A DNA stretch of 64,000 bases from an uncultured Candidatus Saccharibacteria bacterium (GTDB taxonomy: Bacteria > Patescibacteriota > JABMPQ01 > JAQVVF01), in contig CAZNOH010000001.1 in NCBI GenBank assembly GCA_964574655.1, positions 201,852 to 265,851 on the forward strand, read 5' to 3'. Below the pieces are notes generated by a model that was not told the DNA's origin, did no database searches, and was given only the letters and a program-made list of their open reading frames with translations. Of the stretch, positions 13,445 to 47,878 are shown in pieces. Positions within the stretch are counted from its first letter, which is position 1. Each line of letters opens with the position of its first letter. The position numbers and the translations under genes were made by a program.

Positions 13445-13534
13445 ATATTGATGTTTGGACGATAATCATTCTTAGAGGAAAGATCTTTAGAAAATTATTT
13501 CGTGATAGTAGGAACCCAAAAAAGGAGGGAGAGA

Positions 13535-24425: not shown

Positions 24426-24896
24426 ATGGCAAGAAGAAAAAGACAATATAAAAGAGAATTAAAACCAGATCCAAAATATGGTAATTTAGTTGTATCTAAA
24501 TTTATCAACAGTATCATGAAAAGAGGTAAAAAGGGTGCAGCTAGAAAAATAGTCTATAATGCAATGAGCTTAATATTCACTAGATCAAAAAAAGATCCAG
24601 TAGAAATTTTTGATTTAGCTTTAAAAAATGTTGCTCCTGATTTGGAAATAAAGGGCAGAAGAATCGGCGGCGCTAATTATCAGATTCCTTATGAAGTAAG
24701 AGGCGATCGCAAGCAAACTTTAGCTTTTAGATGGATTCTTGATGCTGCAAGAAGTAAAAAAGGTCAGCCAATGTCAGTTAGATTGGCTACTGAAATAATG
24801 GATGCTTCAAAAAGTCAGGGATTGGCTGTTAGAAAGAAAGAAGATTCCCACAGAATGGCAAGAGCAAATAAAGCTTTTGCGCATTTTGCACGATAA
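24426..24896 (+). CDS. rpsG: Ribosomal protein S7
   Basis: Typical S7 sequence. Confidence 0.95.
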   Translation: MARRKRQYKRELKPDPKYGNLVVSKFINSIMKRGKKGAARKIVYNAMSLIFTRSKKDPVEIFDLALKNVAPDLEIKGRRIGGANYQIPYEVRGDRKQTLAFRWILDAARSKKGQPMSVRLATEIMDASKSQGLAVRKKEDSHRMARANKAFAHFAR

Positions 24897-24909
24897 GATG
24901 CTAATTTAC

Positions 24910-24995
24910 AAATCTCATGCCAATCTACTAATTGCTAATATTAATCTAACGATTTGCAATTTGTAGATTGGCATTTTTATTTGTAGATTGGCATC
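24910..24995. repeat. Hairpin element tgccaatctac..gtagattggca with a second gtagattggcat copy
   Basis: A 12-bp inverted repeat flanks a loop of about 40 nt. The 3' arm is tandemly duplicated. Confidence 0.4.
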
Positions 24996-28322: not shown

Positions 28323-28452
28323 AAAGTCAAAAGTAAAAAGGTAAAAGTTGCAAGTAAAAAGTAAAAAATTATTAAATAAAAATTTCTAAATTGTTAGCAA
28401 TCAAGTTTAACAATTTAACAATTGAGCAATTTAACAATTCAAAAATAAAATT

Positions 28453-28818
28453 ATGACAATCAATGTTTTAGATCCAGAAGAATTTCCAGCAATTTTGAGA
28501 TTATTGAAATCAACTGGCGGAAAATATATCATTGTTGAAAATGGAAAACCGTCTTTTGCAATGATGACAATCTCTGAGTATGAAAAATTGTTGAACAAAA
28601 AAGAAAAAACAGAAAAATGCTGTTCAGGAAAATTGTTGCTTGATAAAATTAATCATGATATTGCTGATTGGAAGATGAAACAAGATGAAGAAAATAAAAA
28701 ATATTTTGATTATGAATTGCCGAAAAAAAGCTATAAAAAAGATGTTTTGGTTGAAGAAGATTTGAGCTACTATTATGATGTTGAGGAAGAGCAAAAAGAT
28801 GAAAGATTTGATTTTTAA
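28453..28818 (+). CDS. Orphan Phd/YefM-like antitoxin-fold protein with an acidic C-terminal tail
   Basis: The N-terminal ILRLLKSTGGKYIIVENGKPSFAMMTISEYEKLL matches the YefM pattern. No toxin gene is adjacent. Confidence 0.4.
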   Translation: MTINVLDPEEFPAILRLLKSTGGKYIIVENGKPSFAMMTISEYEKLLNKKEKTEKCCSGKLLLDKINHDIADWKMKQDEENKKYFDYELPKKSYKKDVLVEEDLSYYYDVEEEQKDERFDF

Positions 28819-28868
28819 TCATCGCAGAATGACGCAGAATCGTACGCAGAAAGTGCAGAATCTTTTTC
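28819..28868. repeat. Post-stop CGCAGAAT array (4 units; periods 10, 11 and 10 bp)
   Basis: atCGCAGAATgaCGCAGAATcgtaCGCAGAAAgTGCAGAATc. Starts 1 nt after the TAA stop. Confidence 0.65.
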
Positions 28869-29059
28869 GATTAGTTATTAACAAAAAGGTCTTGCCTTAT
28901 ATCATAAATGTTGTTATAATGCTTCTTACAAAATAGATTTTCGGAAAAAGTATTTTTTATTTTTGCATAATTTATTTAGGTTAGAAATATAGAGGATTTA
29001 GTATTTGACAATATAATTTTTTATGTATATACTTAAAATAATAATTAAATTCTAAAAAA

Positions 29060-30253
29060 ATGGCAGAAAAATTTGACAGATCAAAACCACATCTAAATGT
29101 TGGTACAATCGGCCATGTTGATCATGGAAAAACTACTTTAACAGCAGCTATTTTGAAGGTTATCAATGCTACTGGCAAAGGAAAAGCACAAGAGAGAACA
29201 GTTGATCAAATTGACTCAGCTCCAGAAGAGCGCGAGAGAGGAATTACAATTGCAACTGCTCATTGTGAGTATGAAACAGAAAAAAGACATTATGCTCACG
29301 TAGATTGTCCAGGACATGCTGATTACATTAAGAATATGATTACTGGTGCAGCTCAAATGGACGGTGCTATTTTGGTTGTATCTGCTGCTGACGGACCAAT
29401 GCCTCAAACAAGAGAACATATTTTATTGGCTTACCAGGTTGGTGTTCCATATATTGTTGTTTTCTTAAATAAAGTTGACCAAGTTGATGATCCAGAAATG
29501 GTTTCTTTAGTTGAAGAAGAAGTTAGGGAATTATTAAATAAATATCATTTTCCTGGAGATGAAGTTCCAATTGTCAAAGGTTCAGCTTTAAAAGCTTTAG
29601 AAGATCCATCAGGTGAAGCTGGCAAACCAGTTTTGGAATTATTAGAAAAGTTAGATTCTTATATTCCTGAACCAAAAAGAGATGTTGATAAACCATTATT
29701 GATGCCTATTGAAGACGTATTTTCAATTGAAGGTCGTGGAACTGTTGTTACTGGTAGAATTGAGAGAGGCATGGTTAAGATTAATGATACAGTAGAAATT
29801 GTTGGTTTAAAACCAACTCAAAAGACTGTTGCTACAGGCATTGAAATGTTCAATAAATCTTTGGATGAAGGCAAGGCTGGCGATAATGCAGGTATTTTGC
29901 TTCGTGGTACAAAGAAAGAAGACGTTCAAAGAGGACAAGTGTTAGCAAAGCCTGGTTCAATTACTCCACATACTGAATTTGAAGCAGAAAGCTATATTTT
30001 GAAGAAAGAAGAAGGCGGACGCCATACTGCATTCACAAATGGCTATAAACCTCAATTCTATGTTAGGACTACCGATGTTACTGGAGAGGTAACATTGCCT
30101 TCTGGAACTGAAATGGTAATGCCTGGTGATACAGTAAATGGTATGAAAGTTAAATTAGTTGCTCCTGTTGCTATGGAAGAAAAAATGAAATTTGCTATTC
30201 GCGAGGGTGGCAAGACTGTTGGTGCAGGCGTTGTAACAAAAATTGTTAAATAA
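29060..30253 (+). CDS. tuf: Elongation factor Tu
   Basis: [17 protein letters not shown] and NKVD motifs. Confidence 0.97.
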
Positions 30254-30265
30254 ATGATTTCATAA

Positions 30266-30289
30266 TAGGGAACAAATTTTTGTTCCCTA
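30266..30289 (+). terminator. Perfect palindrome hairpin tagggaacaaa|tttgttcccta after tuf (attenuator/terminator-like; no clean T-run)
   Basis: 11-bp stem. Confidence 0.4.
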
Positions 30290-30309
30290 TTAATTATTAT
30301 TAAGCCCTT

Positions 30310-30657
30310 TTGATGCCAAAGACTAAAGAAAAAGTAAAGAAAGAAGAAGTTTCTTCTCCAAGAATAAGAATCAAAATTAAGGCGTTTGATCACAAGATTA
30401 TTGACAAGTCTGCAGAGCAGATAATTGAAACTGCAAAGAGATCTGGTGCAGAGGTTATCGGCCCTATTCCACTTCCTACTGAAAAACATAGGGATACTGT
30501 TTTGAAATCCACTTTTGTTCATAAAGACGCTCGTGAACAATTTGAGATTAGAATCCACAAGAGATTGATTGATATTGTAAAGCCGACACCGAAAACTATC
30601 GAAGCTTTGTCGAACCTTAATTTACCAGCAGGTGTTGATGTAGAAATAAAGATGTGA
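30310..30657 (+). CDS. rpsJ: Ribosomal protein S10 (N-terminal extension)
   Basis: [15 protein letters not shown] motif. Confidence 0.9.
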
Positions 30658-30735
30658 TGTTTTATTTGAATGCGTTTTCGAATGAGTGCAAATGTGTTTT
30701 AGAATGCTTGAGAAAGAGTTTGTGAATGTTTTAAA
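30658..30735. repeat. GAATG phased array in an atypical 220-nt S10-L3 spacer
   Basis: gaatg or caaatg at 30668, 30680, 30690, 30702 and 30724, with periods of 10-12 bp. Confidence 0.55.
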
Positions 30736-30879
30736 CATTTTTGTTAACTATTTTTTTAGATATAAAGTAGTATTTAGCAAATAAATAGGCGAGTGAATCG
30801 CTTTGGATTTGTTAACCTAATTTATTTAGGTCTTTATTTATTTTTTAAATAAATATTGTTAATATATATATTTTAAGCA

Positions 30880-31488
30880 ATGAAATTTATATTTGGTGAA
30901 AAAATTGGAATGAGCAGAATGTATAACGAAGGTAAGCTAGAAGCTGTTACCTTGGTTAAAATTGATGATTGTGTTATAACAAGGCTTTTGGATATGAAAA
31001 AAGATGGTTATTCTGCTGTTCAGGTCGGTTATTACATAGTTAAAAAAGGCGATGGCAGAGTAAAAGGCGCTTTAAATAAGGCTGGTATAAAGGAAAATCT
31101 AAGTAATTTTGCTGAATTCAGAGTTGATGACTTGACTTCATATAAAATCGGTGGTAAAATTAATATTTCACAGTTCAAAAAGGGTGATTTATTGTCTATT
31201 TCTGGGCTTTCAAAAGGCAAAGGTTTCGCAGGCGTAATGAAGCGACATGGTTTTCATGGTGCTTCACATTCACACGGCCATAAGCATGATTGGAGAGCTC
31301 CTGGTTCTATTGGTTGTGGTTTTCCTCAGCACGTTGTGAAGGGTAAAAGAATGGCAGGCAGAATGGGCGGGGATAATGTAACTTTGAAGAATTCATCAAT
31401 TTTGGATATCAGTTTAGATGAGAATGTTTTAGCTATAAAAGGGGCTTTGCCCGGAAAGATTGGTACATGGCTAAAGATTTGTGGCTAA
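30880..31488 (+). CDS. rplC: Ribosomal protein L3
   Basis: Typical L3 (GKGFAGVMKRHGF). Confidence 0.9.
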   Translation: MKFIFGEKIGMSRMYNEGKLEAVTLVKIDDCVITRLLDMKKDGYSAVQVGYYIVKKGDGRVKGALNKAGIKENLSNFAEFRVDDLTSYKIGGKINISQFKKGDLLSISGLSKGKGFAGVMKRHGFHGASHSHGHKHDWRAPGSIGCGFPQHVVKGKRMAGRMGGDNVTLKNSSILDISLDENVLAIKGALPGKIGTWLKICG

Positions 31489-31489
31489 A

Positions 31490-31545
31490 GTTCTTAAAGT
31501 TATAAAGTTGTAAAGTTATAAAGTCGAACTGCTAAATTGTTAAAT
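31490..31545. repeat. TAAAGTT (5 units, 9-bp period) followed by TAAATTGTTAA (2 units) word array
   Basis: taaagttcttaaagttataaagttgtaaagttataaagtcg..ctaaattgttaaattgtta. Confidence 0.5.
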
Positions 31546-31568
31546 TGTTATGGTGTTAAAGTTAATTT

Positions 31569-32180
31569 ATGTTAAATATTGATGTATTGAACAGAGAAGG
31601 AAAGAAAGTCGGAACAGTGGATTTAGATCCAAAGATTTTTGGCGTGGAAATCAAAATTGCAGTTGTTCATCGCGCAGTTGTAGCTCAATTAAGCAAGAAA
31701 GAAATTACTTCAAAAACAAAAGATAGAGCTGAAGTAAGCGGTGGTGGTATCAAGCCTTGGAAGCAAAAAGGCACAGGTCGCGCTCGTGTTGGTTCCATTC
31801 GTTCTCCGTTATGGAAGGGCGGAGGCAAAACATTTGGTCCTGTTATGACTAAAAATGATGTCAAAAAAATCAATAGGAAAGAAAAAAGAAAAGCTTTGCA
31901 TATGGCGCTTTCTGATAAATTTAATTTAAAGAAATTAATCGTTCTTGATGAACTGAAGATGGAAGCAATCAAGACTAAAGAATTTGTTAAAATTTTAAAG
32001 AATATTAAGGCTGAAAAGAGTACTTTGGTAATGTTGAAGGACAATGATGAAAAGACGATGAAGTCAATAAGAAATATTGCTAGTGTGAAGCCTTTGCTGT
32101 CTAATCTTTTGAATGTTTATGATGTTGTAAAGTATGATAAATTAGTTTTAGATAAGAACGCTTTAGCAATGATTAAATAA
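31569..32180 (+). CDS. rplD: Ribosomal protein L4
   Basis: Typical L4. Confidence 0.9.
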   Translation: MLNIDVLNREGKKVGTVDLDPKIFGVEIKIAVVHRAVVAQLSKKEITSKTKDRAEVSGGGIKPWKQKGTGRARVGSIRSPLWKGGGKTFGPVMTKNDVKKINRKEKRKALHMALSDKFNLKKLIVLDELKMEAIKTKEFVKILKNIKAEKSTLVMLKDNDEKTMKSIRNIASVKPLLSNLLNVYDVVKYDKLVLDKNALAMIK

Positions 32181-32197
32181 TTTTTGAAGTTAATTGT

Positions 32198-32599
32198 ATG
32201 GCTTTATTAGATGTATTCAAAAAAGGAAAGAAGAAAGAAAAAGAAGTTTCTGCAAAGAAGAAAGTTTTAGCTACAAAAAGTTCTGAAAAAATGCAAAAGG
32301 CTGTTAATATTTATAGCGCTGCATATAAAAATTTATTGAAACCAGTAGTTTCAGAAAAGTGCGCAAATTTGAATATCTCCAATAAATATGTATTTCAAGT
32401 AAAGAAGTCAGCATCTAAGAATGATATTGCAAAAGCGATTTTCGCAGTTTATGGAATTAAGCCAGTCAAGGTTAATGTTATAAATTTATCTGGAAAATCA
32501 AGAAGATATGGCAGAAGTATCGGCAAGACTATAGACAAAAAGAAGGCAATTGTAACTTTGCCAGCAGGCAAGAGCATTAAGATTTATGAAGGAGTATAA
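32198..32599 (+). CDS. rplW: Ribosomal protein L23 (Lys-rich N-terminal extension)
   Basis: The C-terminal part is typical L23. Confidence 0.85.
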   Translation: MALLDVFKKGKKKEKEVSAKKKVLATKSSEKMQKAVNIYSAAYKNLLKPVVSEKCANLNISNKYVFQVKKSASKNDIAKAIFAVYGIKPVKVNVINLSGKSRRYGRSIGKTIDKKKAIVTLPAGKSIKIYEGV

Positions 32600-32689
32600 T
32601 AAATAATTTTCAATTACCAATTTCCAATTTTCAATTGTTTCATGCGAAGTTGTAAATTGATTATTGAAAATTGAGAATTTAATTTTAAT

Positions 32690-33520
32690 ATGCCAATTAA
32701 GACTTACAGACCAATTACGCCTTCAAGACGATATATTACGACCGTTGATTTTTCAATGTTGTCAAAAAAAGAGCCTGAAAAAAGCTTGACTGTGGCATTG
32801 CAAAAACATAGCGGTAGAAATAATCGTGGTAAAATTACAGTTCGTCATAGAGGCGGAGGCAGCAAAAGAAAGTATAGAATGATTGATTTCAGAAGATCAA
32901 ATTTTGATATTGAGGGAGAGATTAAGAGTTTAGAATATGATCCAAACAGATCTGCTTTTATTGCGTTAGTTCAATATTCTGATGGCTCTAAGACATATAT
33001 TTTAGCGCAAGAGAATTTGAAAATTGGTGATAAGATCATGAGTTCTTTAAAAAAGCTTGAAGCAAATATTGGAAACAGATATCCATTAAAATATATTCCT
33101 ACTGGCACTCTTGTTTCAGAAGTTGAATTTGCGCCAATGAAAGGCGGTCAAATGGTTAGAAGTGCCGGTTCAGCTGCTCAGCTTTTGGCGATTGAAGGTA
33201 AATTCGCTCAATTGAAGTTTCCTTCTGGAGAAGTAAGAAATGTATTGATTGATTCTTCTGCAACGATTGGCAGAGTTGGCAATATTGATCATGGCAATAT
33301 TACAATTGGTAATGCTGGAAGGGTTAGAAATATGGGTCGAAGACCTCAGGTAAGAGGCAAGGCGATGAATCCAAAAGATCATCCACATGGCGGTGGTGAA
33401 GGTAGAAATTCAATTGGTTTGGTTCATCCGAAGACAAAATGGGGTAAGCCAGCATTGGGTGTTAAGACAAGAAAGCCTAACAAATTGTCTAGCAAACTAA
33501 TTTTGAAGAGAAGAAAATAA
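32690..33520 (+). CDS. rplB: Ribosomal protein L2
   Basis: Typical L2 (GRNNRGKITVRHRGGG..HPHGGGEG). Confidence 0.95.
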   Translation: MPIKTYRPITPSRRYITTVDFSMLSKKEPEKSLTVALQKHSGRNNRGKITVRHRGGGSKRKYRMIDFRRSNFDIEGEIKSLEYDPNRSAFIALVQYSDGSKTYILAQENLKIGDKIMSSLKKLEANIGNRYPLKYIPTGTLVSEVEFAPMKGGQMVRSAGSAAQLLAIEGKFAQLKFPSGEVRNVLIDSSATIGRVGNIDHGNITIGNAGRVRNMGRRPQVRGKAMNPKDHPHGGGEGRNSIGLVHPKTKWGKPALGVKTRKPNKLSSKLILKRRK

Positions 33521-33548
33521 TTTTTAAGATACTAAGTTATATATCATT

Positions 33549-33908
33549 ATGTCACGAAGTTTAAAGAAGGGTTTATGGTGCGATCCTAAGCTTTTGAAGA
33601 AAATTAAGAATCTACGAAAAGAAGATAGAACTATCCTTAAGACTTGGTCTAGATCTTCGACTATTTTTCCTGAGATGGTAGGCTATACTCTTGGTGTTCA
33701 TAATGGAAAAGAACATATTCCAGTATTGTTGACAGAAGAAATGGTTGGACATAGATTAGGTGAATTTTCTCCAACTAGACGATTTGAAGTTCATGGCGGT
33801 AGAATTGCTAAGGAAGAAGCAGCAGCAGCTCAAGCAACTGAAACACAGAAATTAGCAGCCACAAAAGAAGGAGAAGGCGAAGTTGAGAAAAAAGAAGTTA
33901 AAGAATAA
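33549..33908 (+). CDS. rpsS: Ribosomal protein S19 (acidic/Ala C-terminal extension)
   Basis: [18 protein letters not shown]. Confidence 0.9.
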
Positions 33909-33919
33909 TTAATCTATAT

Positions 33920-34423
33920 ATGTCAGTTAAAGCAACATTAAAACATTTACATATTGCACCAAGAAAAGCGAAATTAGTAGTCAATCTAATTCGTGGTTTG
34001 GATGTTTCTGATGCAGAAGATCAATTAAGATTTTTAAATAAGAAATCTTCTGACTTGGTTTTGAAATTGTTATTATCAGTTGCTAGCAATGCAGTCCATA
34101 ATTTTAATATGGAAAAAGATAATTTGTTTGTTTTAAAGATTTTTGTTAATGAAGCACCGACTTTGAAAAGATTCCGTCCTCGAGCTTTTGGAAGAGCTTA
34201 TACAATAAGAAGAAGAACTAGCCATATTGAAATAGAATTGGAAGAAAAGATCAAAGGCAAGAAAGCTAAAAAGATTAAAAAGCAAGAAATCAAAGCAGAA
34301 GAGAAGCAAGAAAAGAAGGTAAGCAAGGAAAAGGGATGGGATAAGAATAAAGATCAGAAACGAGGAATATTCGGAAGAAAATCGGGTAAAAGTAATAAGA
34401 TTTTTCAAAGAAAGGCAATGTAG
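33920..34423 (+). CDS. rplV: Ribosomal protein L22 (Lys-rich C-terminal extension of about 50 aa)
   Basis: The L22 core plus a KKAKKIKK tail. Confidence 0.9.
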   Translation: MSVKATLKHLHIAPRKAKLVVNLIRGLDVSDAEDQLRFLNKKSSDLVLKLLLSVASNAVHNFNMEKDNLFVLKIFVNEAPTLKRFRPRAFGRAYTIRRRTSHIEIELEEKIKGKKAKKIKKQEIKAEEKQEKKVSKEKGWDKNKDQKRGIFGRKSGKSNKIFQRKAM

Positions 34424-34424
34424 A

Positions 34425-34492
34425 GTGAACGCTGATATGACGCTGATTTCTAACCTGCCTACCGGCAGGCAGGCGCTGATCTGATGCTGATT
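34425..34492. repeat. Post-stop ACGCTGAT array with an embedded cctgcc-tacc-ggcagg hairpin
   Basis: gaACGCTGATatgACGCTGATttctaa[cctgcctaccggcagg]caGGCGCTGATctGATGCTGAT. Confidence 0.6.
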
Positions 34493-34536
34493 AAATCGTA
34501 ATTAAATTTTTATATTTTAGTTTTTCAAGTAAACAT

Positions 34537-35175
34537 ATGGGACATAAAATTAGTCCAATTAGTTTCAGAATTGGTGGTTTGCAAACTTGGTCATCGAAGT
34601 GGTTTTCAGATAGCAAAAAGTATAAGGATTATTTGATTAGCGATGTTAAGCTAAGAAGAATGATTTTTGAAAAATTGAAAAATGCAGCTTTATCTTTAAT
34701 TGAAATTGAAAGAACAACACAGTCAATAACTTTTACTTTACATTCTTCAAGACCTGGAATTATAATCGGCCGTGGTGGAACAGAAATAGAAGAAATGAAA
34801 AAAGAGATTGCAAAGAATGTTGGTCCTGGAATTAAGATTGATATTAATATTAAGGAAATAAGAGAGCCAGAAGCAGATGCAGCAACAGTTGGCGTTTTGA
34901 TAGCTGAACAAATTGAAAAAAGAATTTCTTTTAGAAGAGTTATCAAAAGAGCTTTGGAGAGAACAATGCAGAATAGAAATGTAAAAGGTTGTAAGATTAT
35001 GATTTCTGGCAGATTGGATGGATCTGAAATGTCAAGACGCGAATGGGTAGCAGAAGGAAAATTGCCTTTGCATACTTTGAGAGCTAATATTGATTTTGCG
35101 AAGAGGGTTGCTCGTACTACAATGGGCGCGACTGGAATAAAGGTTTGGATTTATAAGGGCGAAGTTTTTAAGTAA
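34537..35175 (+). CDS. rpsC: Ribosomal protein S3
   Basis: KH and S3-C domains. Confidence 0.95.
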
Positions 35176-35260
35176 TCGCGAATGTGCACGAATGTGCCAC
35201 AAATTTCACTACTTGCTATTTGTGTCATTCGTGATAAATTTGTGTAAATTAGAGAATTAT
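35176..35260. repeat. ATCGCGAATG / CACGAATG / CACAAATT phased array with inverted copies (cattcgtg, aaatttgtg) downstream
   Basis: Immediately after the S3 TAA stop. Homologous to the arrays at 36617 and 38384. Confidence 0.6.
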
Positions 35261-35668
35261 ATGTTAATGCCGAAAAAAGTAAAACATAGGAAGTGGCAAA
35301 AAGGAAGCAATAAGAGGATTGAAGTACGAGGAAGCCGATTGAGTTTTGGTATGTTTGGTTTGAAAGCTTTAGAAGGAAAATGGTTAACAGCAAGACAAAT
35401 TGAAGCTTCTAGACGTGCAATGACAAGATTTATTCAACGTGGTGGAAAAGTATGGATCAGAATATTTCCTGATAAGCCGGTAACTACAAAAGGTGCTGAA
35501 ACTCCAATGGGTAAGGGCAAAGGTGCAGTTGATCATTTTGTTGTTTCTGTTGCGCCAGGAAAGATTTTGTTTGAAATGGATGGAGTTAAAGAAAAGGTTG
35601 CTCGCGAGGCTTTGAGATTAGCAGCAAATAAATTGCCTATCAAGACTAAATTTATAATGGAATTATAA
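35261..35668 (+). CDS. rplP: Ribosomal protein L16
   Basis: Start taken at [11 protein letters not shown] (the ORF track's 35192 start is upstream and inside the repeat array). Confidence 0.9.
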
Positions 35669-35670
35669 TT

Positions 35671-35868
35671 ATGAAAGTTAAAGAAATCAGAGAAAAAAAA
35701 GATAAGGAACTAGTAAAAATGCTGGCTGAAAAAAGAGAGAGCCTGCGCGATATTAGATTTAAGATTGCTTCAAGTCAGTATAAGAATGTTAAAGAAATTT
35801 CTTTTTTGAAAAAAGACGTTGCAAAGGTTTTGACAGTAATGAACGAAAGAGCATTAATCAAAGCTTAA
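35671..35868 (+). CDS. rpmC: Ribosomal protein L29
   Basis: KELREKKDKEL..LRFK. Confidence 0.85.
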   Translation: MKVKEIREKKDKELVKMLAEKRESLRDIRFKIASSQYKNVKEISFLKKDVAKVLTVMNERALIKA

Positions 35869-35948
35869 GTGTTTTATTGTTAAATTGCTAAATTGTTAAA
35901 TGTGAATAATGTAAGAGAATAGAAATACGTGAATAAATTATAAATATT

Positions 35949-36209
35949 ATGGAAAAAAATTTAGATAAGAAGAAAATGCCACGCCAATTGAAAGGCACTG
36001 TTGTATCAGACAAAATGGAAAAATCCATTGTTGTTGAGGTTGAAAGAATTAAGGCTCATCCAATTTATAAAAAGAGATATCATGTTTCTCTGAAAGTAAA
36101 GGCTCATGATGCAGATAACAAGGCTAAGGTTGGAGATGTTGTATTGATTGAACAATGCAGGCCTTTAAGTTCTGACAAGCATTATAGATTAAAGAAAGTA
36201 TGCAAATAG
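35949..36209 (+). CDS. rpsQ: Ribosomal protein S17
   Basis: GTVVSDKMEKSIVV..YKKRY. Confidence 0.9.
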   Translation: MEKNLDKKKMPRQLKGTVVSDKMEKSIVVEVERIKAHPIYKKRYHVSLKVKAHDADNKAKVGDVVLIEQCRPLSSDKHYRLKKVCK

Positions 36210-36240
36210 CCTTAGCGAATGGGCACATACGAATATACTA
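36210..36240. repeat. Post-stop GCGAATG / ACGAATA units
   Basis: ccttaGCGAATGggcacatACGAATAtac. Confidence 0.45.
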
Positions 36241-36250
36241 ATAAATTGTT

Positions 36251-36616
36251 ATGATACAGACTCAATCAAAATTGAAAGTCGCAGACAATTCCGGAGCAAG
36301 GATTATCCGTTGTATTAGAGTACACAGAGGATTTAAGAGAAGATATGCAAGAATGGGCGACACTATTACAGCTGTTGTTTTAGAAGCTATTCCAGGTGGA
36401 ATTGTAAAGAATAAAGAGGTAGTGCAGGCTGTTGTAATTAGGCAGAAAAAAGAATTGCGCCGAGAAGATGGTACATACATCAGATTTGATGATAATGCAG
36501 CAGTAATCATTGATGGAAAGGAACCAAAAGGTACTAGGATTTTTGGTCCAGTTGCTCGTGAATTGAGAAAGGGTGATTTTACAAAAATCATTTCTTTGGC
36601 AGTCGAAGTATTATAA
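36251..36616 (+). CDS. rplN: Ribosomal protein L14
   Basis: [16 protein letters not shown]. Confidence 0.95.
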
Positions 36617-36658
36617 ATCGCGAATTTACACAAATTTTTCACGAATATCGCAAATATT
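36617..36658. repeat. Post-stop ATCGCGAATT / ACACAAATT / CACGAATATCGCAAAT array
   Basis: Starts at the first nucleotide after the L14 TAA stop. Confidence 0.55.
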
Positions 36659-36675
36659 ATATCCAATAAATTTTT

Positions 36676-36984
36676 ATGAGAATCAAAAAAGGCGACAACG
36701 TATTAGTAATATCAGGTAAGGACCGAGGCAAGGTTGGCAAGGTGCTTTCTGTTTTGCCTAAATTGGATAAGATCATCGTTGAGAATGTCAATAAGGTGTC
36801 AAAGCATACAGAATCTAAAAGACAGGATAAGAAAGGACAGAAATTGCAAGTAGATTCGCCAATCAATATTTCTAATGTTTTGTTTAAGTGTCCAAAATGC
36901 AATAAGGCTGTTAGGACTGGAATTAAAATTGGCGAAGATAAGAAAAAATTCAGAATTTGCAAGAAGTGCAAAGAAACTATTTAA
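36676..36984 (+). CDS. rplX: Ribosomal protein L24 (KOW) with a C-terminal zinc ribbon (CPKC..CKKC)
   Basis: KKGDNVLVISGKDRGKVGKV. Confidence 0.9.
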   Translation: MRIKKGDNVLVISGKDRGKVGKVLSVLPKLDKIIVENVNKVSKHTESKRQDKKGQKLQVDSPINISNVLFKCPKCNKAVRTGIKIGEDKKKFRICKKCKETI

Positions 36985-36994
36985 TTTATACAAG

Positions 36995-37023
36995 GTAGAG
37001 ACGTAGCAATGCTACGTCTCTAC
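36995..37023. repeat. GTAGAGACG hairpin element, copy 2 (identical to copy 1)
   Basis: gtagagacgtagcAATgctacgtctctac. Confidence 0.7.
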
Positions 37024-37033
37024 AAAAATAATT

Positions 37034-37729
37034 ATGACAGAATTACAAAAAAAATATAATGAGAAGATTGTGCCTTTTATGAAGGAGAAGTTTGGTTATA
37101 AAAATGTAAATGAAATTCCAAGGATCTCTAAGATTGTTTTGAATATTGGTGCAGGAAAGACCTTGAAAGATCCAAAATTAATTGATATAATGATTGATAA
37201 CCTGAAAAGAATCAGCGGACAGGCTCCAGTTAAGACTCGCGCTGCAAAATCAATCGCTGGATTTGGCATTAAAGAAGGTCAAGTAGTAGGTTTGGCAGTA
37301 AATATGCGCGGTGCTAGAATGTATGAATTTTTGAACAAGTTTGTCAATGTCGCTCTACCAAGATTTAGAGATTTTCAAGGTTTGTCTCCGGAAGCGTTTG
37401 ATGGACAAGGAAATTACAATATTGGAATAAAGGAACAAATTGTTTTTCCAGAAATAAAGGCTGATGAAATTGAAAAGGTGCATGGATTAGAAGTAACCAT
37501 TGCAACAACTGCTGAAACCGATGAAGAGGGGTTGGAACTTTTAAAAGCTATCGGATTTTTATTTAGAAAACGCGGTGAAAGAGCAAAGGAAGAAGCGTTG
37601 AAAGAAGTCAGCAGAAAAGAATCGGTCATGAAGAGATATGATGCAATGAAAAAGAAACAAACTGTAGTTGGAGTAATTCCATCTGCTAAGGTAAAGTCTG
37701 AAGCTCCAAAGAAAGAAAAGTCTAAATAA
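37034..37729 (+). CDS. rplE: Ribosomal protein L5 (C-terminal extension)
   Basis: Typical L5 core. Confidence 0.9.
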   Translation: MTELQKKYNEKIVPFMKEKFGYKNVNEIPRISKIVLNIGAGKTLKDPKLIDIMIDNLKRISGQAPVKTRAAKSIAGFGIKEGQVVGLAVNMRGARMYEFLNKFVNVALPRFRDFQGLSPEAFDGQGNYNIGIKEQIVFPEIKADEIEKVHGLEVTIATTAETDEEGLELLKAIGFLFRKRGERAKEEALKEVSRKESVMKRYDAMKKKQTVVGVIPSAKVKSEAPKKEKSK

Positions 37730-37749
37730 TATTTTTTTAAATAACTATT

Positions 37750-37935
37750 ATGGCACGAGAGGCATTAATCGCTAAAGCAAAAAAGAAACCTAAATTTTCG
37801 ACTCGTATTGTAAGACGATGTGAATTGTGTGGTCGAAAACATGGATATATGAGACGCTATGGAATGTGTAGAATTTGTTTTAGAGAGCTTGCTAGCAAGG
37901 GAGAAATTCCTGGAGTTAGAAAAGCATCCTGGTAG
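37750..37935 (+). CDS. rpsN: Ribosomal protein S14, zinc-binding type Z
   Basis: 61 aa with a CxxC..CxxC motif. Confidence 0.9.
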
Positions 37936-37943
37936 AATATTTA

Positions 37944-37972
37944 GTAGAGACGTTGCATTGCAACGTCTGTAC
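37944..37972. repeat. GTAGAGACG hairpin element, copy 3
   Basis: gtagagacgttgcATTgcaacgtctgtac. The inner stem changed tagc/gcta to ttgc/gcaa, which is compensatory. Confidence 0.65.
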
Positions 37973-37996
37973 AAAAGTTTATAAAGTAATAAATTT

Positions 37997-38383
37997 ATGG
38001 TAGATCCTATTGCGGATATGTTAACACAAATTAGAAACGCTCAGGCAGTAAAGAAACCTGAAGTCACTTTATCTTATTCAAAGGTAAAGCTTGGAGTTGC
38101 AAAAATCTTGAAAGAAGAAGGCTACATTGCTGATTTTTCAATTTTGGAAAAAAACAAGTTTTTGAAGATGGTTTTGAAATATTTAGAAAATGGAAAGCCA
38201 CTTATTCAAAATATTAAGAGGGTAAGTACTCCTGGACAACGGATTTATGTTGGCAGCAAAGATATCAGAAAAATTTTAGGCGGTTTAGGAACTTCAATAG
38301 TTTCTACATCGAGAGGTATTATGACAGGCAAGGAAGCAAGAAAGAAGAACTTAGGCGGTGAAGCTATTTGCGAAATATTTTAG
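37997..38383 (+). CDS. rpsH: Ribosomal protein S8
   Basis: DPIADMLTQIRNA. Confidence 0.9.
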   Translation: MVDPIADMLTQIRNAQAVKKPEVTLSYSKVKLGVAKILKEEGYIADFSILEKNKFLKMVLKYLENGKPLIQNIKRVSTPGQRIYVGSKDIRKILGGLGTSIVSTSRGIMTGKEARKKNLGGEAICEIF

Positions 38384-38440
38384 TTAACATCGCGAATCTG
38401 CACGAATGCCTTACGGCCACAAATTGCACGAATAGATATT
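38384..38440. repeat. Post-stop ATCGCGAATC / CACGAATG / CCACAAATT / CACGAATA array
   Basis: Collinear with 35177-35207 apart from a ccttacgg insertion. Confidence 0.6.
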
Positions 38441-38485
38441 TGTTAATTTAGTTAGTGATTTATTAAGTGTAAATTAGAGAAATTT

Positions 38486-39034
38486 ATGTCAAGAATTGGA
38501 AAATTACCGATTCAGATTCCAGAAGGTGTGGAAGTAAAAATTGTTGATAATACCATAACTGTAAAAAAAGAAAAAAATCAGTTACAGTTTTCTTTGAATC
38601 CAAAAGTTATTGTTACAAGTGATGCTAAAGAAATAAAGGTTGAAGTAAAGAAAGAAGTAAACAGAAATCTTTGGGGTGTTACGAGATCAATTATCAATAA
38701 CATGGTTATTGGTATAACAAAAGGATTTGAAAAGAAGTTGGAAATAGAAGGAATTGGTTTTAATGCACAGGTTAATGGCGATAAATTAGTCATGAAATTA
38801 GGTTTTTCTCATCCGATTGAATACCTTGCTCCTAAAGGAATAAAATTTGAAGTGAAGAAAAATTTGATTACAGTTTCTGGAATAGATAAACAATCAGTAG
38901 GTCAAGCAGCAGCCGAGATAAGAGAATTCAAAAAACCTGAACCATATAAAGGAAAGGGAATCCATTATCTTGGCGAGCATATTATTAGAAAAGAAGGAAA
39001 GAAAGCTGTTGCCTCAGAAGGCGGAGCTAAATAA
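38486..39034 (+). CDS. rplF: Ribosomal protein L6
   Basis: SRIGKLPI. Confidence 0.9.
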   Translation: MSRIGKLPIQIPEGVEVKIVDNTITVKKEKNQLQFSLNPKVIVTSDAKEIKVEVKKEVNRNLWGVTRSIINNMVIGITKGFEKKLEIEGIGFNAQVNGDKLVMKLGFSHPIEYLAPKGIKFEVKKNLITVSGIDKQSVGQAAAEIREFKKPEPYKGKGIHYLGEHIIRKEGKKAVASEGGAK

Positions 39035-39048
39035 TTATATAAGAGTTT

Positions 39049-39393
39049 ATGAATAAAAAATTACTTAGAACGAGAAGACATAAAAGAATAAGATCAAGAA
39101 TGGATGGTTTAGCAAAGAAACCTAGATTGGTTGTATTTAGAAGCAATAAGCATATTCATGCTCAATTGATTGATGATTCTGTTAGTAAAACTTTAGTTGC
39201 TGCAGCTGATTTAGAATTAAAAGATTTAAAGAAGAAAAAGAGTGAAATAGCTTTTGCAGTCGGAGAGTTGGCAGCAAAAAAAGCAATAGAAAAAAATATT
39301 TCAGAAGTTGTTTTTGATAGAGGCGGATATAAATATACGGGAAGAGTTAAGGCTTTGGCTGATGGCGCAAGAAAAGGCGGACTCAAGTTCTAA
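39049..39393 (+). CDS. rplR: Ribosomal protein L18
   Basis: RLVVFRSNKHIHAQLID..FDRGGYKYTGR. Confidence 0.9.
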   Translation: MNKKLLRTRRHKRIRSRMDGLAKKPRLVVFRSNKHIHAQLIDDSVSKTLVAAADLELKDLKKKKSEIAFAVGELAAKKAIEKNISEVVFDRGGYKYTGRVKALADGARKGGLKF

Positions 39394-39473
39394 TAACTAA
39401 ATAACTAAATTAAAAAATAACTAAATTGCGAATTATTACGAATTATAAATTACTTAATTACTGAATTAAATAA

Positions 39474-40103
39474 ATGGATAGAAATAATAAGAGAAATTTT
39501 AGAGGGGACAAAGAATTTGATCAAGAATTAGTTGATCTTGCTAGAGTTACCAGAATAGTTGCTGGTGGACGTCGTTTTAGATTTAGAGCAACATTGGTAA
39601 TCGGAAATAAAAAGGGTTCAGTTGGCATGGGAATTGGAAAGGGTGTTGATGTATCATCTGCAATTGCAAAAGCATTGGCAATAGCAAGAAAAAACATGAT
39701 AAAGGTTTTGATTATTGACAATACTATTCCATACGAAATTTGGGTAAAATATTGTGGCGCAAAGGTTTTTTTGAAACCTGCAAAAGTTGGTACAGGAGTT
39801 ATTGCTGGCGGTGCTGTTCGTACAGTTATGGATTTGGCTGGTATTAGAAATATAACAGCAAAAATGTATGGATCAAACAACACTCCTAATAACGTAAGAG
39901 CAACTTTGATGGCTTTAGAAAAAATGAGAAAGCCTGAAGATATAGCTTCTGCTAGAGGTAAGAAAATTGAAGATTTGCTTGGAAAGAAGAAAGAAGTAAA
40001 GTCAGAAGAAAAAAAAGTTGTTGCTTTCGCTGATGCTACATTGATCAGGGAAGTTAAGAAAGTAGCTGAAATTAAAAAGATTGCTAAAGTTGTTAAAAAA
40101 TAA
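39474..40103 (+). CDS. rpsE: Ribosomal protein S5 (C-terminal extension). No L30 gene follows.
   Basis: VTRIVAGGRRFRFRATLVIGN. Confidence 0.9.
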   Translation: MDRNNKRNFRGDKEFDQELVDLARVTRIVAGGRRFRFRATLVIGNKKGSVGMGIGKGVDVSSAIAKALAIARKNMIKVLIIDNTIPYEIWVKYCGAKVFLKPAKVGTGVIAGGAVRTVMDLAGIRNITAKMYGSNNTPNNVRATLMALEKMRKPEDIASARGKKIEDLLGKKKEVKSEEKKVVAFADATLIREVKKVAEIKKIAKVVKK

Positions 40104-40123
40104 GATATTGGATATTAATTATT

Positions 40124-40669
40124 ATGAAATTATACGAATTAAAACCTGCAAAAGGATCAACAAAGAAAAGAAAGATTGTTGGACGTGGAAATGGATCTGG
40201 TCACGGAACATTTTCTGGGAGAGGATGCAAAGGTCAGAAAGCTAGATCAGGCTATAGCAGACGTCCAAGCTTTGAAGGCGGTAGGACTCCTTTATATATG
40301 CAGATTCCTAAAAAAAGAGGATTCAAAAGTTTATCAGCAAAACCAGAAATTGTTAATGTTTTAGCTTTGGAGAAAAAATTTAATGACAATGATAATATTG
40401 ATAAGAAAAAGATGGCTGAAGCTGGTTTGATTAAATCTGTTGATGTAGATGTGAAAGTTTTAGGCGATGGTGATATTAAGAAAAAATTAAATATTTCAGC
40501 TGAATATTTTTCAGAATCTGCAAAAGAAAAGATTGAAAAGGCTGGAGGCAGTGTTAAGATTATTGAGAAGATTAAAAAAGAAAAGGTTAAAGATAAAAAA
40601 ACTGTAGTAGTACAAAATAAAGTAAAAAAAGAAAAGGCAAAAGTTCCAAGCCTGCCTATTGGCAAGTAG
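40124..40669 (+). CDS. rplO: Ribosomal protein L15 (long Lys-rich C-terminal extension)
   Basis: LKPAKGSTKKRKIVGRGNGSGHG. Confidence 0.85.
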   Translation: MKLYELKPAKGSTKKRKIVGRGNGSGHGTFSGRGCKGQKARSGYSRRPSFEGGRTPLYMQIPKKRGFKSLSAKPEIVNVLALEKKFNDNDNIDKKKMAEAGLIKSVDVDVKVLGDGDIKKKLNISAEYFSESAKEKIEKAGGSVKIIEKIKKEKVKDKKTVVVQNKVKKEKAKVPSLPIGK

Positions 40670-40721
40670 GTCAAAAGTAATATAATTTTACTTTTTATTA
40701 TTAGCTTGTTAATTCTCCTTC

Positions 40722-42002
40722 ATGTTTGAGAAGATAGCCCAAATTTTTAAAATAAAAGAGCTGCGAAATAAAATTATATTCGCCTTAGCTCTTTTAATTG
40801 TTTTTAGATTTGCTGCTCATATTCCAGTTCCTGGTGTTGATGCTGCAGCCTTAAAAAGTTTTTTTGAAAGCAATCAGATTTTTGGTTTGTTAAATATGTT
40901 TACTGGTGGCGGTATGGAAAACTTTTCAATTGTAGCTATGGGCGTTGGTCCTTATATTACATCTTCTATTATTATGCAATTGTTAGTAATGGTTGTTCCA
41001 GCTTTGGAAAAATTGCAAAAAGAAGAAGGCGAGGATGGCAGGAGAAAAATGAATCAAATCACTAGATGGTTGACTATTCCTTTGGCAGCATTACAGTCTT
41101 ATTCAATGATAGTTTTATTGCAGAAAACCGGGCAGAATATTTTGGGCACATTAGATCCTTTTAAGTTGGTGACGATGATTGTAACGCTAACAGCTGGAAC
41201 TGTATTTTTAATGTGGCTTGGCGAGTTGATTACTGAAAAAGGCATTGGCAATGGTGTTTCATTGATCATTTTTGGTGGTATAGTTTCAGCCATACCTTTG
41301 GCAATCCAACAGACATTTGTGAATTTTGAGCAGTCAAAATTGTTAGAATTAGTTATTTTTGCAGTGATAGCTGTAGTTGTAATTGCCGGAATTGTTTTTA
41401 TAACAGAAGGTCATAGAAACATTCCAGTTCAATATGCAAGAAGAGTTCGTGGTATGAAAATGTACGGCGGGACAACTTCACATTTGCCTTTGAAAGTTAA
41501 TCAAGCAGGTGTTATTCCAATTATTTTTGCGATGTCATTAATGTTGCTTCCTGGTATGATTGCCAATTTTTTGGTCAGTGTGAATAATGCTATGGTCAAA
41601 GGCATTGCTCAAAATGTAGCTGATTTGTTTAACAACAATTTTTTTTACGGCGCGTTATATTTTGTGATGGTTATTTTCTTCACTTATTTTTATACTGCAG
41701 TTACATTTGATCCAAAGCAAATTTCTGAACATTTACAAAAGCAAGGTGGATTTATTCCAGGAATAAGGCCAGGTACTCATACAAGAGGATATTTGACAAA
41801 GACGATGACAAGAATTACTTTGACTGGCTCATTCTTTTTAGGTCTTGTTGCTGTTCTGCCATTTATTATGAAAGCAGCATTTGATATGCCGTCATTAGTA
41901 ATCGGCGGTACTGGAATATTGATTGTGGTAAGTGTTGTAATTGAAACTGTCAGGCAAATTGAATCAGAAATGGTGATGAGGGATTACGAATCTTTTTATT
42001 AA
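40722..42002 (+). CDS. secY: Preprotein translocase SecY
   Basis: 10-TM topology, MFTGG and IPGIRPG motifs. Confidence 0.95.
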   Translation: MFEKIAQIFKIKELRNKIIFALALLIVFRFAAHIPVPGVDAAALKSFFESNQIFGLLNMFTGGGMENFSIVAMGVGPYITSSIIMQLLVMVVPALEKLQKEEGEDGRRKMNQITRWLTIPLAALQSYSMIVLLQKTGQNILGTLDPFKLVTMIVTLTAGTVFLMWLGELITEKGIGNGVSLIIFGGIVSAIPLAIQQTFVNFEQSKLLELVIFAVIAVVVIAGIVFITEGHRNIPVQYARRVRGMKMYGGTTSHLPLKVNQAGVIPIIFAMSLMLLPGMIANFLVSVNNAMVKGIAQNVADLFNNNFFYGALYFVMVIFFTYFYTAVTFDPKQISEHLQKQGGFIPGIRPGTHTRGYLTKTMTRITLTGSFFLGLVAVLPFIMKAAFDMPSLVIGGTGILIVVSVVIETVRQIESEMVMRDYESFY

Positions 42003-42076
42003 AACAAGCGCTGAATTAAAAATTTTTGTGACAAAATTTTTAATGCTGATTTCGAACGCTGATTTGACGCTGATAG
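42003..42076. repeat. Post-stop CGCTGAT array (AGCGCTGAAT..AATGCTGAT..AACGCTGAT..GACGCTGAT)
   Basis: Starts 3 nt after the secY TAA stop and is followed by a terminator. Confidence 0.6.
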
Positions 42077-42127
42077 AAGGTGGAAACCTTCTTTTTTCTT
42101 GACAAGATTAAAGATAAGGAGTATTTT
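42074..42127 (+). promoter_or_regulatory. Terminator (agaaggt-gga-aaccttct + T6) fused to a TTGACA promoter at 42099
   Basis: Hairpin + T-run, then TTGACA-17-TATTTT. Confidence 0.45.
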
Positions 42128-42314
42128 TTAAATTGATGATAAATATTTACAAAAATTTTAATTTAGTTCCAACTCCTACTGGTTTTTGTGGGCTAGTTTG
42201 ATTTTGTTTTAAATAATTTAAAATAAGAACAGACTGGCTCAGATAGCCAGTTTTTTGTACTTTGAGAAACAAGTCTAGTGCATAAGTTTTATGTGCTAGA
42301 CAAAGGAGGAGAAG

Positions 42315-46405: not shown

Positions 46406-46451
46406 CAAGCGCTGATTAAACGCTGATTTCCAACGCTGATTTAACGCTGAT
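46405..46451. repeat. Post-stop ACGCTGAT array (4 units; spacings 11, 13 and 11 bp)
   Basis: caaGCGCTGATtaaACGCTGATttccaACGCTGATttaACGCTGATa. Confidence 0.7.
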
Positions 46452-46504: not shown

Positions 46505-46551
46505 AGCAAGCGCTGATTTAATGCAGATGCTAACGCTGATTTGGCGCTGAT
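46505..46551. repeat. Second ACGCTGAT array, tandem to the first (degenerate second unit ATGCAGAT)
   Basis: caaGCGCTGATttaATGCAGATgctaACGCTGATttgGCGCTGATa, then a T-rich run. Confidence 0.65.
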
Positions 46552-47322: not shown

Positions 47323-47347
47323 AGACGAGGCAATGTCTCGTCTTTAC
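47319..47347. repeat. GTAGAGACG hairpin element, copy 4
   Basis: gtagagacgaggCAATgtctcgtctttac. Confidence 0.6.
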
Positions 47348-47366
47348 AAAGTTTTAAAGTATTGCT

Positions 47367-47831: not shown

Positions 47832-47878
47832 CGAGCGCTGATTTTACGCTGATTTTTAACGCTGATTTGACGCTGATA
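47832..47878. repeat. Post-stop ACGCTGAT array (4 units; spacings 11, 13 and 11 bp)
   Basis: cgaGCGCTGATtttACGCTGATttttaACGCTGATttgACGCTGATa. Confidence 0.7.

Follow-up and report, generated by a model that had tools for sequence, protein, structure and literature searches.

A dyad-symmetric repeat of phased heptamers at gene junctions of a ribosomal protein operon in Patescibacteria

The DNA stretch analysed here, referred to as the window, comprises 64,000 nucleotides of the contig CAZNOH010000001.1 (positions 201,852 to 265,851) of an uncultured Candidatus Saccharibacteria bacterium. It contains a ribosomal protein operon in which an earlier note, made from the sequence alone, had pointed out arrays of short repeats following stop codons, the first of them between the genes of ribosomal proteins S3 (rpsC) and L16 (rplP). 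The G+C content of the window is 32.8%, and nearly all genes are located on the + strand. Ten of the approximately 84 open reading frames (ORFs) were scanned against Pfam, which supported the assignments of S10, L3, S3, L16, S17, L14, L24, S8, and L6 and gave a weak Phd/YefM match for the ORF at 28453, in agreement with the gene names used earlier. The best match to the S3 protein among the GTDB species genomes is only 54% identical (Saccharibacteria, Patescibacteria, and Moraniibacteriota metagenome-assembled genomes, MAGs), while an S3 sequence found in a protein database at 91% identity is labelled as Patescibacteria group bacterium. Most genes of the window lack a GGAGG-type Shine–Dalgarno sequence upstream of the ATG (e.g., 35255–35263 and 36670–36678), and a few have long purine-rich Shine–Dalgarno sequences (6570–6586, 12430–12447, 13515–13534, and 55175–55191).

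Since the L16 gene begins at position 35261 (MLMPKK...), the S3–L16 spacer spans positions 35176–35260. The mechanically called rplP ORF opens at an ATG at 35192, inside the repeat element, which puts it 69 nt ahead of the conserved MLMPKK start and makes it a likely annotation trap; this ATG should not be taken as the rplP start.

The spacer is occupied by a complete palindromic element (35175–35254, + strand, as are the other arrays of the window listed below) that begins on the final base of the rpsC stop codon and stops 6 nt short of the rplP ATG. Its left arm consists of four phased heptamers of the form YRC-N-AAT, with starts 10, 11, and 9 nt apart: CGCGAAT at 35177 (U1), CACGAAT at 35187 (U2), CACAAAT at 35198 (U3), and a degenerate CACTACT at 35207 (U4). 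Four inverted copies with the mirrored spacing of 9, 11, and 10 nt make up the right arm, namely ATTTGTG at 35218 (U5), ATTCGTG at 35227 (U6), ATTTGTG at 35238 (U7), and ATTAGAG at 35248 (U8). This inverted arm, covering 35218–35254, had been overlooked, and what was described as a one-way array is instead a palindrome able to form a hairpin; the predicted folding energy of the spacer is −23.4 kcal/mol (z = −3.6 relative to shuffled sequences). A covariance model of the element, R1, matched this copy with 79.2 bits (E-value 1.5e-15), a partly circular score since the copy is among the 15 sequences behind the model. The opposite strand was also matched (61.9 bits), and the copy therefore has dyad symmetry.

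The second full-length copy (38389–38479) lies between rpsH and rplF and likewise ends 6 nt before the ATG. Its left arm is intact (heptamers at 38391, 38401, 38418, and 38427) and its right arm is decayed (ATTTGTT at 38438, GTTAGTG at 38451, TTAAGTG at 38463, and ATTAGAG at 38473); a 6-nt mini-hairpin is inserted in the U2–U3 spacer, and the unit starts are 10, 17, and 9 nt apart. The R1 model matches this copy from end to end (38389–38483, 44.4 bits, E-value 2e-7), and the collinearity with the S3–L16 copy that had been noticed earlier holds across the whole spacer, down to GTGTAAATTAGAGAAWTT and the ATG. A half copy directly after the rplN stop codon (36617–36655) comprises the left arm only, ATCGCGAAT TTA CACAAAT TTTT CACGAAT AT CGCAAAT, with unit starts 10, 11, and 9 nt apart. 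The period given in the earlier note was 10–12 bp. Shorter remnants were found after rpsQ (36213–36242, a degenerate copy reading TAGCGAAT GGG CACATA CGAATAT ACTAAT, with no fold), in the L18–S5 spacer (39425–39443, two units, TGCGAAT TAT TACGAAT), and at 8980–9005 (U1, U2, and a GCGAATA remnant). Altogether, one copy in the window is intact, one has a decayed arm, and one is a half copy, while several other arrays are remnants or cousins.

The cousins include an array after the Phd/YefM-like gene (28821–28861) with four CGCAGAAT units, the third being CGCAGAAA and the fourth GTGCAGAAT, which begins ATCGCAGAAT. Intervals of 10 and 12 nt separate its first three units, counted from their starts, and by our reading the fourth starts about 9 nt further on; the array begins 2 nt past the stop codon within a 241-nt spacer with promoter-like sites for tuf (28892 and 29005). 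At the 5′ end of the S10–L3 spacer (30665–30728), a related array has (T)TTTCGAATG-type units, with GAATG at 30668, 30680, 30702, and 30724 and AAATG at 30690. Two more distant members are long hairpins: one after the GT2-like gene (2646–2753), composed of GCCAAT, GCTAAT, and CGAAT with inverted copies (z = −7.3; R1 E-value 1.4e-3 over 2650–2747), and one at 24897–24995, composed of TGCTAAT, TACAAAT, TGCCAAT, and TACTAAT with inverted copies (spacer z = −7.5; R1 E-value 8e-4, about 1e-3, over 24895–24995). The arrays after rpsJ, the Phd/YefM-like gene, and the GT2 gene, which had been placed in a single family with the S3–L16 array, are thus related to it only as cousins.

The pattern is genuine and far exceeds chance expectation. 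Across the 7.9 kb of intergenic sequence, C[AG]C[AG]AAT has 14 + strand matches versus 1.5 expected, forming four clusters of at least two and three clusters of at least three, compared with means of 0.02 and 0 in 300 dinucleotide shuffles. The 19-nt pattern ATCGCGAATNNNCACRAAT (ATCGCGAAT-N3-CACRAAT) occurs exactly four times in the window, at 8980, 35175, 36617, and 38389, where 0.09 occurrences are expected; the L18–S5 remnant matches it with two mismatches. The arrays lie where the earlier note had placed them, and their sequences were read there as described. Its statement that they are concentrated in the ribosomal operon received weak support in the window (four of five copies in 28% of the junctions, p ~0.02 by our own binomial estimate) and was not borne out in other genomes.

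Relatives of the window were retrieved via S3 homologues: L081 (S3 91% identical to that of the window, nucleotide identity about 81–82%), L083 (S3 80% identical), and L084 (S3 68% identical), while L082 is 99.98% identical to L081 and added nothing. At the S3–L16 junction, the 85-nt element of the window corresponds to a diverged but collinear 86-nt one in L083 (R1 E-value 2.7e-7), while only 25 nt are left in L081, in which the element has been deleted. The L14–L24 and S8–L6 copies and the cousin array at 28821 are also absent from L081. In L083, a decayed ACAAAT/ACAGAT array is located between L14 and L24. At the rpsQ junction, L081 has a different word hairpin and L083 a 12-nt spacer. A CGAAT array is found between L6 and L18 in L081 versus 14 nt in the window, and other junctions of L081 hold other families of word arrays. 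The L084 locus has no array of at least three units and no R1 match, and its spacers are only 5–13 nt long at the four junctions checked, consistent with the earlier view that the arrays are extra DNA in a compact operon. Element copies turn over faster than the proteins diverge, which is incompatible with the behaviour of gene-specific operators.

The sole array kept at the same junction in the window, L081 (about 10 units), and L083 is the CGAATG array between S10 and L3. A long spacer is general at this junction, ranging from 76 to 392 nt in eight loci checked, most of them from Patescibacteria. Its 3′ part (30728–30830), in which TTGTTA-17-TAAAGT and a small GGCGAGTGAATCGCT hairpin are found, is almost identical in the window and L081, in contrast to other, scrambled spacers, and may serve the L3 operon as a promoter or leader.

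A single scan of metagenome contigs with the 19-nt pattern yielded 120 loci and, together with the window, 132 matches. About two thirds of these were due to chance, lying in high-GC or coding DNA without additional units, and 47, including three in the window, had at least three phased units, with the same unit offsets in contigs of 27–50% GC. The full mirror-image form was present in 17 copies, with units at offsets 2, 12, 23–24, and 32–33 on the left and 43–46, 52–55, 63–66, and 73–76 on the right. The intervals were 10, 12, and 9 nt in 13 of the 26 arrays with four chained units, and the U1–U4 span was 31 bp in 15 of them (range 29–33). The ends read ATCGCGAAT ... ATTCGCGAT in three loci (L128, L191, and L108), while most others end in ATTAGCGAGAT or ATTAGAG; the element thus has terminal inverted repeats.

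In the alignment of the 15 sequences, which were chosen for intact units, the six outer positions of heptamers U3–U8, unconstrained by the search pattern, showed 93% pairwise identity, compared with 36% for the central base of the heptamer, 42% for the spacers, and 29% expected at random. Likewise, three copies of a single locus, L196, share 96% of heptamer positions and only 53% of spacer positions.

The L196 locus is a ribosomal protein operon with complete elements in the L24–L5, L5–S14, and S14–S8 spacers; its L5 and L24 proteins best match Moraniibacteriota/Patescibacteria loci at about 54–57% identity, and L24 is 53% identical to that of the window. Another ribosomal protein operon, L165, carries copies at L16–L29 and L24–L5 and has six spacers of 94–203 nt, most with YRC-N-AAT arrays. 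Both loci belong to other Patescibacteria, with ribosomal proteins about 53–56% identical. Copies were also detected between a membrane-fusion-type gene and an ABC ATPase gene (L187), between pseudopilin genes (L088), after gatC (L180), and upstream of trmD (L144), so that the element is not restricted to ribosomal operons. A word count over 1.19 Mb of sequence from 80 diverse bacteria found no array of at least three units, and at an R1 E-value below 0.01 only a Moraniibacteriota MAG, L004, was matched among the 80 control loci, versus 50 matches in the pattern loci. L004 has a 4+4 palindrome of TAC-N-AAT words at the start of the S10–L3 spacer, and its S3–L16 spacer ends in ATTAGAGAT before the ATG. 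A viral origin was rejected, as all 19 matches in viral contigs consisted only of the two pattern-forced units and were due to chance. In other lineages, the ribosomal spacers of L001 (a Saccharibacteria MAG), L034, and L052 have arrays of their own words (TAGTAA, CCAATTTTCAA, and AGCGTTT) with several hairpins, and L003, L005, L037, and L044, as well as L084, have mostly short spacers (2–48 nt) at the same junctions.

Like the S3–L16 copy, the others lie close to coding boundaries. The offsets from the stop codon are −1, 0, +5, +3, and +2 nt for the arrays at 35175, 36617, 38389, 36213, and 28821, respectively, in line with the post-stop location proposed earlier; the copy at 8980 is an exception, being preceded by a terminator-like hairpin and not by an ORF stop. 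The outer CGCG-containing unit faces the coding boundary in either orientation, its first A being the last base of a TAA stop codon in at least five copies, and the terminal AT begins the next ATG in L093, L112, and L116. Full copies end 0–9 nt before the start codon. For ten arrays of the CACGAAT, CGCAGAAT, and ACGCTGAT kinds, located in spacers of 41–241 nt, the distance between stop codon and array start is −1 to +6 nt (Fisher p ~1e-4 versus uniform placement). That full copies abut both codons is trivial, because they were inserted into formerly compact spacers of about 10 nt. Of the two observations that the earlier note had named together as refuting its reading, only one was made: the arrays are largely missing from the orthologous spacers of the sister genomes, yet they display a positional preference for gene ends.

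The earlier note interpreted the arrays as cis-regulatory sites in the polycistronic S10/spc mRNA, used for feedback by a ribosomal protein or for processing by an RNase. The location within the operon directly past stop codons, the significant fold of the spacer at 35176, and the persistence of the S10–L3 array in three genomes are consistent with this explanation, and the TAACTGA repeats of Beggiatoaceae have likewise been proposed to act post-transcriptionally (PMC4679880). The covariation check gave no sign of a selected RNA structure: for the mirror structure in the 15 copies, the score was 0.045 versus a shuffled mean of 0.057. Although 88.6% of cells are paired, this is no more than with partners shuffled, because the heptamers are invariant, and the sole variable position, the central base, is unpaired in 7–11 of the 15 copies per helix. 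The spacers at 36210, 36617 (z = −0.4), 38384 (z = +0.1), 39394, and 28819 fold no better than shuffled sequences (z from −0.4 to +0.7), and three of the five copies in the ribosomal protein operon have no fold (z about 0). A search against Rfam returned nothing at the gathering score in the whole window and only a chance mir-239 match at E ≤ 1 in the region 28300–42200, and in E-value mode only weak chance matches were obtained for 8400–9350. The copies are also missing from orthologous spacers of L081, are present in unrelated operons, and, where the flanking ORFs are co-directional, point either way relative to them (roughly 10 versus 14 by our own tally, which is approximate because the genes of metagenome contigs are simple ORF calls in AT-rich DNA, with at least the copy at 36617 mis-assigned by antisense ORFs). 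An autoregulatory ribosomal protein site is therefore not supported, and we regard regulatory RNA sites of any of these kinds as very improbable. The combination of conserved sequence, near-helical phasing, dyad symmetry, and orientation independence instead suggests recognition on duplex DNA rather than a selected RNA fold or a single-stranded RNA site.

No promoter-like or terminator-like sites were detected on the + strand in the three ribosomal protein spacers (35176–35260, 36617–36675, and 38384–38485), and the element is therefore probably co-transcribed with the operon.

The arrays could also be cryptic minisatellites born by slippage in AT-rich spacers, with neither a trans-acting factor nor mobility. 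Slippage would account for the L18–S5 spacer, which is one 10-nt unit longer in the window than in L081, and for the presence of some word array in nearly every spacer. In addition, 26-nt blocks (U1+U2) vary in number from one to four between homologous loci of related contigs (L164, 1570–1690; L201, 1890–2000; L130, 1840–1890) and are repeated two to four times in L164 and L201, which shows tandem expansion of element sub-blocks. However, slippage would yield identical unit-plus-spacer copies, not a 10/12/9 layout with unrelated spacers in dozens of genomes, and it leaves the special first unit ATCGCGAAT and the mirror arm unexplained. As a general explanation, it appears quite improbable to us.

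Taking these data together, we propose, with a probability of roughly 60%, that the arrays represent copies of a dyad-symmetric DNA repeat dispersed in the genomes of Patescibacteria, which resembles the repetitive extragenic palindromes (REP) and bacterial interspersed mosaic elements (BIME) or the miniature inverted-repeat transposable elements (MITEs). The family is apparently undescribed; no description of the element was found in the literature, in searches not aimed at the motif sequence itself. The complete unit is about 85 bp long and consists of ATCGCGAAT-N3-CACGAAT-N4-5-CACGAAT-N2-CACGAAT, a 3–6-nt loop, and a mirror image ending in ATT(A/C)GCGA, each arm thus having four YRC-N-AAT heptamers with starts 10, 11–13, and 9–10 bp apart and a U1–U4 distance of 31 bp, or about three helical turns, with the spacers and the central base of the heptamers free to vary. 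The outer unit abuts or overlaps the upstream stop codon, with the other end 0–9 nt from the next ATG, because the element fills the few non-coding bases between cistrons. Copies degenerate (38389), are reduced to a single arm (36617), change their number of units by slippage (39425), or are deleted, and they turn over between species. The heptamers could be binding sites of a putative sequence-specific duplex-DNA protein, which would either drive the spread of the element or belong to the host and make use of it. In the co-transcribed mRNA, intact copies may fold into an interrupted hairpin joining the stop and start codons, and we propose that such a bridge is the reason why insertions are tolerated in operons that mostly lack Shine–Dalgarno sites.

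Several observations weigh against this proposal. No transposase or RAYT gene linked to the element was found among the ORFs scanned with Pfam, and neither a target-site duplication nor a fixed flanking motif was detected, the flanks of the 47 copies being only A/T-rich with stop codons. No genome contains near-identical copies, and the spacers are only 42–53% identical between copies. The orientation counts, as noted above, are approximate. Half arrays lie 0–6 nt from the stop codon in spacers of 99–241 nt, and compaction alone offers no explanation for this; decay of the distal arm, insertion of promoters or terminators in the loop, or a real link to gene ends may be responsible. The elements at S10–L3 and S3–L16 in the very distant L004 could mean a conserved function there. 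Finally, intact heptamers combined with scrambled spacers look like purifying selection in place, which would favour a host function over a selfish repeat, albeit in copies chosen for intact units. A search for an autonomous parent element was also unsuccessful: among the fetched loci, only L165 has a pair of arms placed on either side of genes, and these are ribosomal genes and not a transposase.

The heptamers may alternatively be a DNA site with a host function, i.e., a platform for a chromosomal protein conserved in Patescibacteria, located between highly transcribed genes, with copies kept by selection. A gyrase-type or nucleoid-type wrapper, as at the BIMEs of E. coli, or a tandem-dimer winged-helix or RHH (ribbon–helix–helix) protein would be candidate binders. 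The contrast between conserved heptamers and near-random spacers, seen even among the copies of one genome, is what such a site would produce, as are the fixed phasing over about three helical turns, the dyad symmetry, and the orientation independence. The same word recurs in lineages whose ribosomal proteins have diverged as far as those of L196 and L165, and the cousin CGCAGAAT array keeps intervals of 10 and 12 nt despite its 8-nt unit. Against this, copies are rapidly gained and lost at orthologous junctions, and some are decayed (38389 and L083); many other word families of the same genome have periods of 8–9 nt that do not fit helical phasing; and no candidate protein was identified, while the copies compared were those with intact units. 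We therefore consider a host-function site possible, though unlikely. With a similarly low probability, the contrast between heptamers and spacers leaves room for a domesticated protein-binding platform in place of selfish DNA. In a more far-reaching version, the 4+4 module would be the recognition platform of a putative Patescibacteria-wide protein or protein family marking cistron boundaries, with lineage-specific cousins such as ACGCTGAT and CGCAGAAT read by diverged paralogues, and would not be selfish DNA at all. We find this rather unlikely; if true, it would imply a genome-wide organisation of intercistronic junctions through supercoil relief, hand-over between transcription and translation, or stop-to-start transfer of ribosomes.

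The element accounts for the 60–200-nt spacers in the ribosomal protein operons of some Patescibacteria, which represent a large share of bacterial diversity and whose non-coding DNA is almost unstudied. If selfish, it is a marker for genome dynamics and for the way in which essential operons tolerate insertions; if selection maintains the heptamers, they point to a new sequence-specific factor at gene boundaries in organisms whose regulators and Shine–Dalgarno sites are few.

The YRC-N-AAT element is one family within a genome-wide habit, since arrays of short words occur in nearly every spacer of the window. The word families comprise ACGCTGAT, YRC-N-AAT, TTGYTAAAT, TAAAGTT, AGTAAAAAG, AGAAATT, and ATCCTAAA, in addition to a GTAG-type REP-like hairpin. 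Many spacers are long hairpins formed by a word array and its own inverted copy; over 57 spacers, the fold z averages −2.8, with 34 values below −2. Arrays of ACGCTGAT, on the + strand, are located at 17048–17091, 34428–34491, 42006–42074, 46407–46451, 46505–46551, and 47833–47877. They have four units at 11, 13, and 10–11 nt and start 1–6 nt past the stop codon, and two of them are followed by an intrinsic terminator; intergenic CGCTGAT occurs 20 times on the + strand and never on the − strand. The resemblance to the CACGAAT family suggested in the earlier note is reasonable as regards a shared architecture of four units with the longest interval in the middle (11/13/10–11 versus 10/12/9) and a 6-bp palindrome in the first unit (AGCGCT versus TCGCGA); a common origin is conceivable. 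In contrast to that family, the ACGCTGAT arrays are strictly one-way. No ACGCTGAT arrays of at least three units were found in the 120 metagenome loci carrying the CACGAAT element.

A G+C-rich mini-hairpin (CCTGCCTACCGGCAGGCAGG) at 34452–34471 is nested in the third unit of a ACGCTGAT array and is missing from the orthologous spacer of L081; it resembles a mobile hairpin of very small size. Comparable GGCGGACAAG/CCGCC motifs lie at 12211–12260, 17885–17950, and 9205–9245. Hairpins headed by GTAG, with the consensus GTAGAGACGTnGCAWTGCnACGTCTSTAC, are located at 912–940, 36995–37023, 37944–37972, 47323–47350, and 59104–59132 (z from −2.6 to −10), and a GTAG-type hairpin is present between L16 and L29 in L081 versus a 2-nt spacer in the window. 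The short copy at 8980 lies in a 620-nt stretch (8539–9161) with no credible gene, which contains a strong TTGACA-17-TATAAT at about 8812–8840, terminator hairpins, and two ORF-like units, short, hydrophobic, and similar to each other, which start ATGAAAAATATTAGCCGACAATTT and ATGTTAAATATCAGTCGACAATTT.

Among known systems, tandem guide RNA arrays deserve mention because of the host group. TIGR arrays, which are common in Patescibacteria and also known from their phages, have two alternating 8–12-nt repeats and 9-nt spacers in 36-nt units, usually 5–15 in number, adjoining a Tas gene with a Nop domain (PMC12045711). The element has one 7-nt word, 2–5-nt spacers, and four units, with copies dispersed among housekeeping genes. 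It has nothing in common with these arrays except the host group and the presence of short interspaced repeats, and a guide RNA array of the TIGR or CRISPR type can practically be dismissed.

Words of 6–7 bp repeated at about 10–11 bp, typically in fours, in direct or inverted arrangement, and read by tandem dimers are known from Pho boxes (PhoB/PhoP), MraZ boxes, and the centromere repeats of ParR and omega. The element resembles them in having sets of four short words at a similar period, while these sites are single-locus operators or centromeres upstream of regulated genes, unlike the dispersed intercistronic element. Presumed resemblances, some of them only partial, to the YC periodicity of Rho rut sites, NrdR and LexA boxes, parS, the TTCGAAT of the tRNA T-loop, and 16S rRNA complementarity were set aside. 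The idea that the GAG at the right end (ATTAGCGAGAT) mimics a Shine–Dalgarno sequence was weakened, because L116, L132, and L165 carry the element reversed relative to the genes, and it was not adopted.

REP and BIME sequences are bound by gyrase, IHF, and Pol I and increase the stability of the mRNA upstream of them; if a REP lies no more than about 15 nt from a stop codon, the preceding gene is translated less. The element is similar to them in being a short imperfect palindrome with many dispersed copies in non-coding DNA, between co-transcribed genes and often after stop codons in operons, with presence varying among relatives; transcription as a hairpin is a further likeness that we claim for it. 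It differs in lacking the GTAG head, beginning instead with ATCGCGAAT, in its length of about 85 bp versus 20–40 bp, and in its arm of four phased heptamers with free spacers, where REP has one continuous stem. The GTAG-type hairpins of the window (912, 36995, 37944, 47323, and 59104) fit REP better than the element does. With MITEs and similar repeats such as Correia/NEMIS, RUP, BOX, and ERIC, it shares small size, non-autonomous inverted repeats located between genes, co-transcription, and insertion polymorphism at the species level, and with BOX also a modular structure with a variable number of internal modules. Unlike in MITEs, the inverted repeat is built of sub-repeats and the copies are not near-identical.

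In the TAACTGA repeats of Beggiatoaceae, Cyanobacteria, and Bacteroidetes, heptamers follow one another head to tail without gaps; with rare exceptions they are direct repeats, and in most cases they adjoin start codons. They have been proposed as post-transcriptional sites and are also found in ribosomal protein operons, e.g., upstream of L3 (PMC4679880). These repeats and the cyanobacterial short tandemly repeated repetitive sequences (STRR) resemble the element in having heptamer words repeated two to six times in intergenic DNA near coding boundaries, at junctions poor in Shine–Dalgarno sequences, with a patchy phylogenetic spread. In the element, the heptamers are 2–5 free bases apart in a 10/12/9 phase (intervals of 9–13 nt), with a special first unit and usually a mirror arm. 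The closest parallels in the literature are the TAACTGA repeats, while in behaviour the element is closest to REP/BIME and bacterial MITEs.

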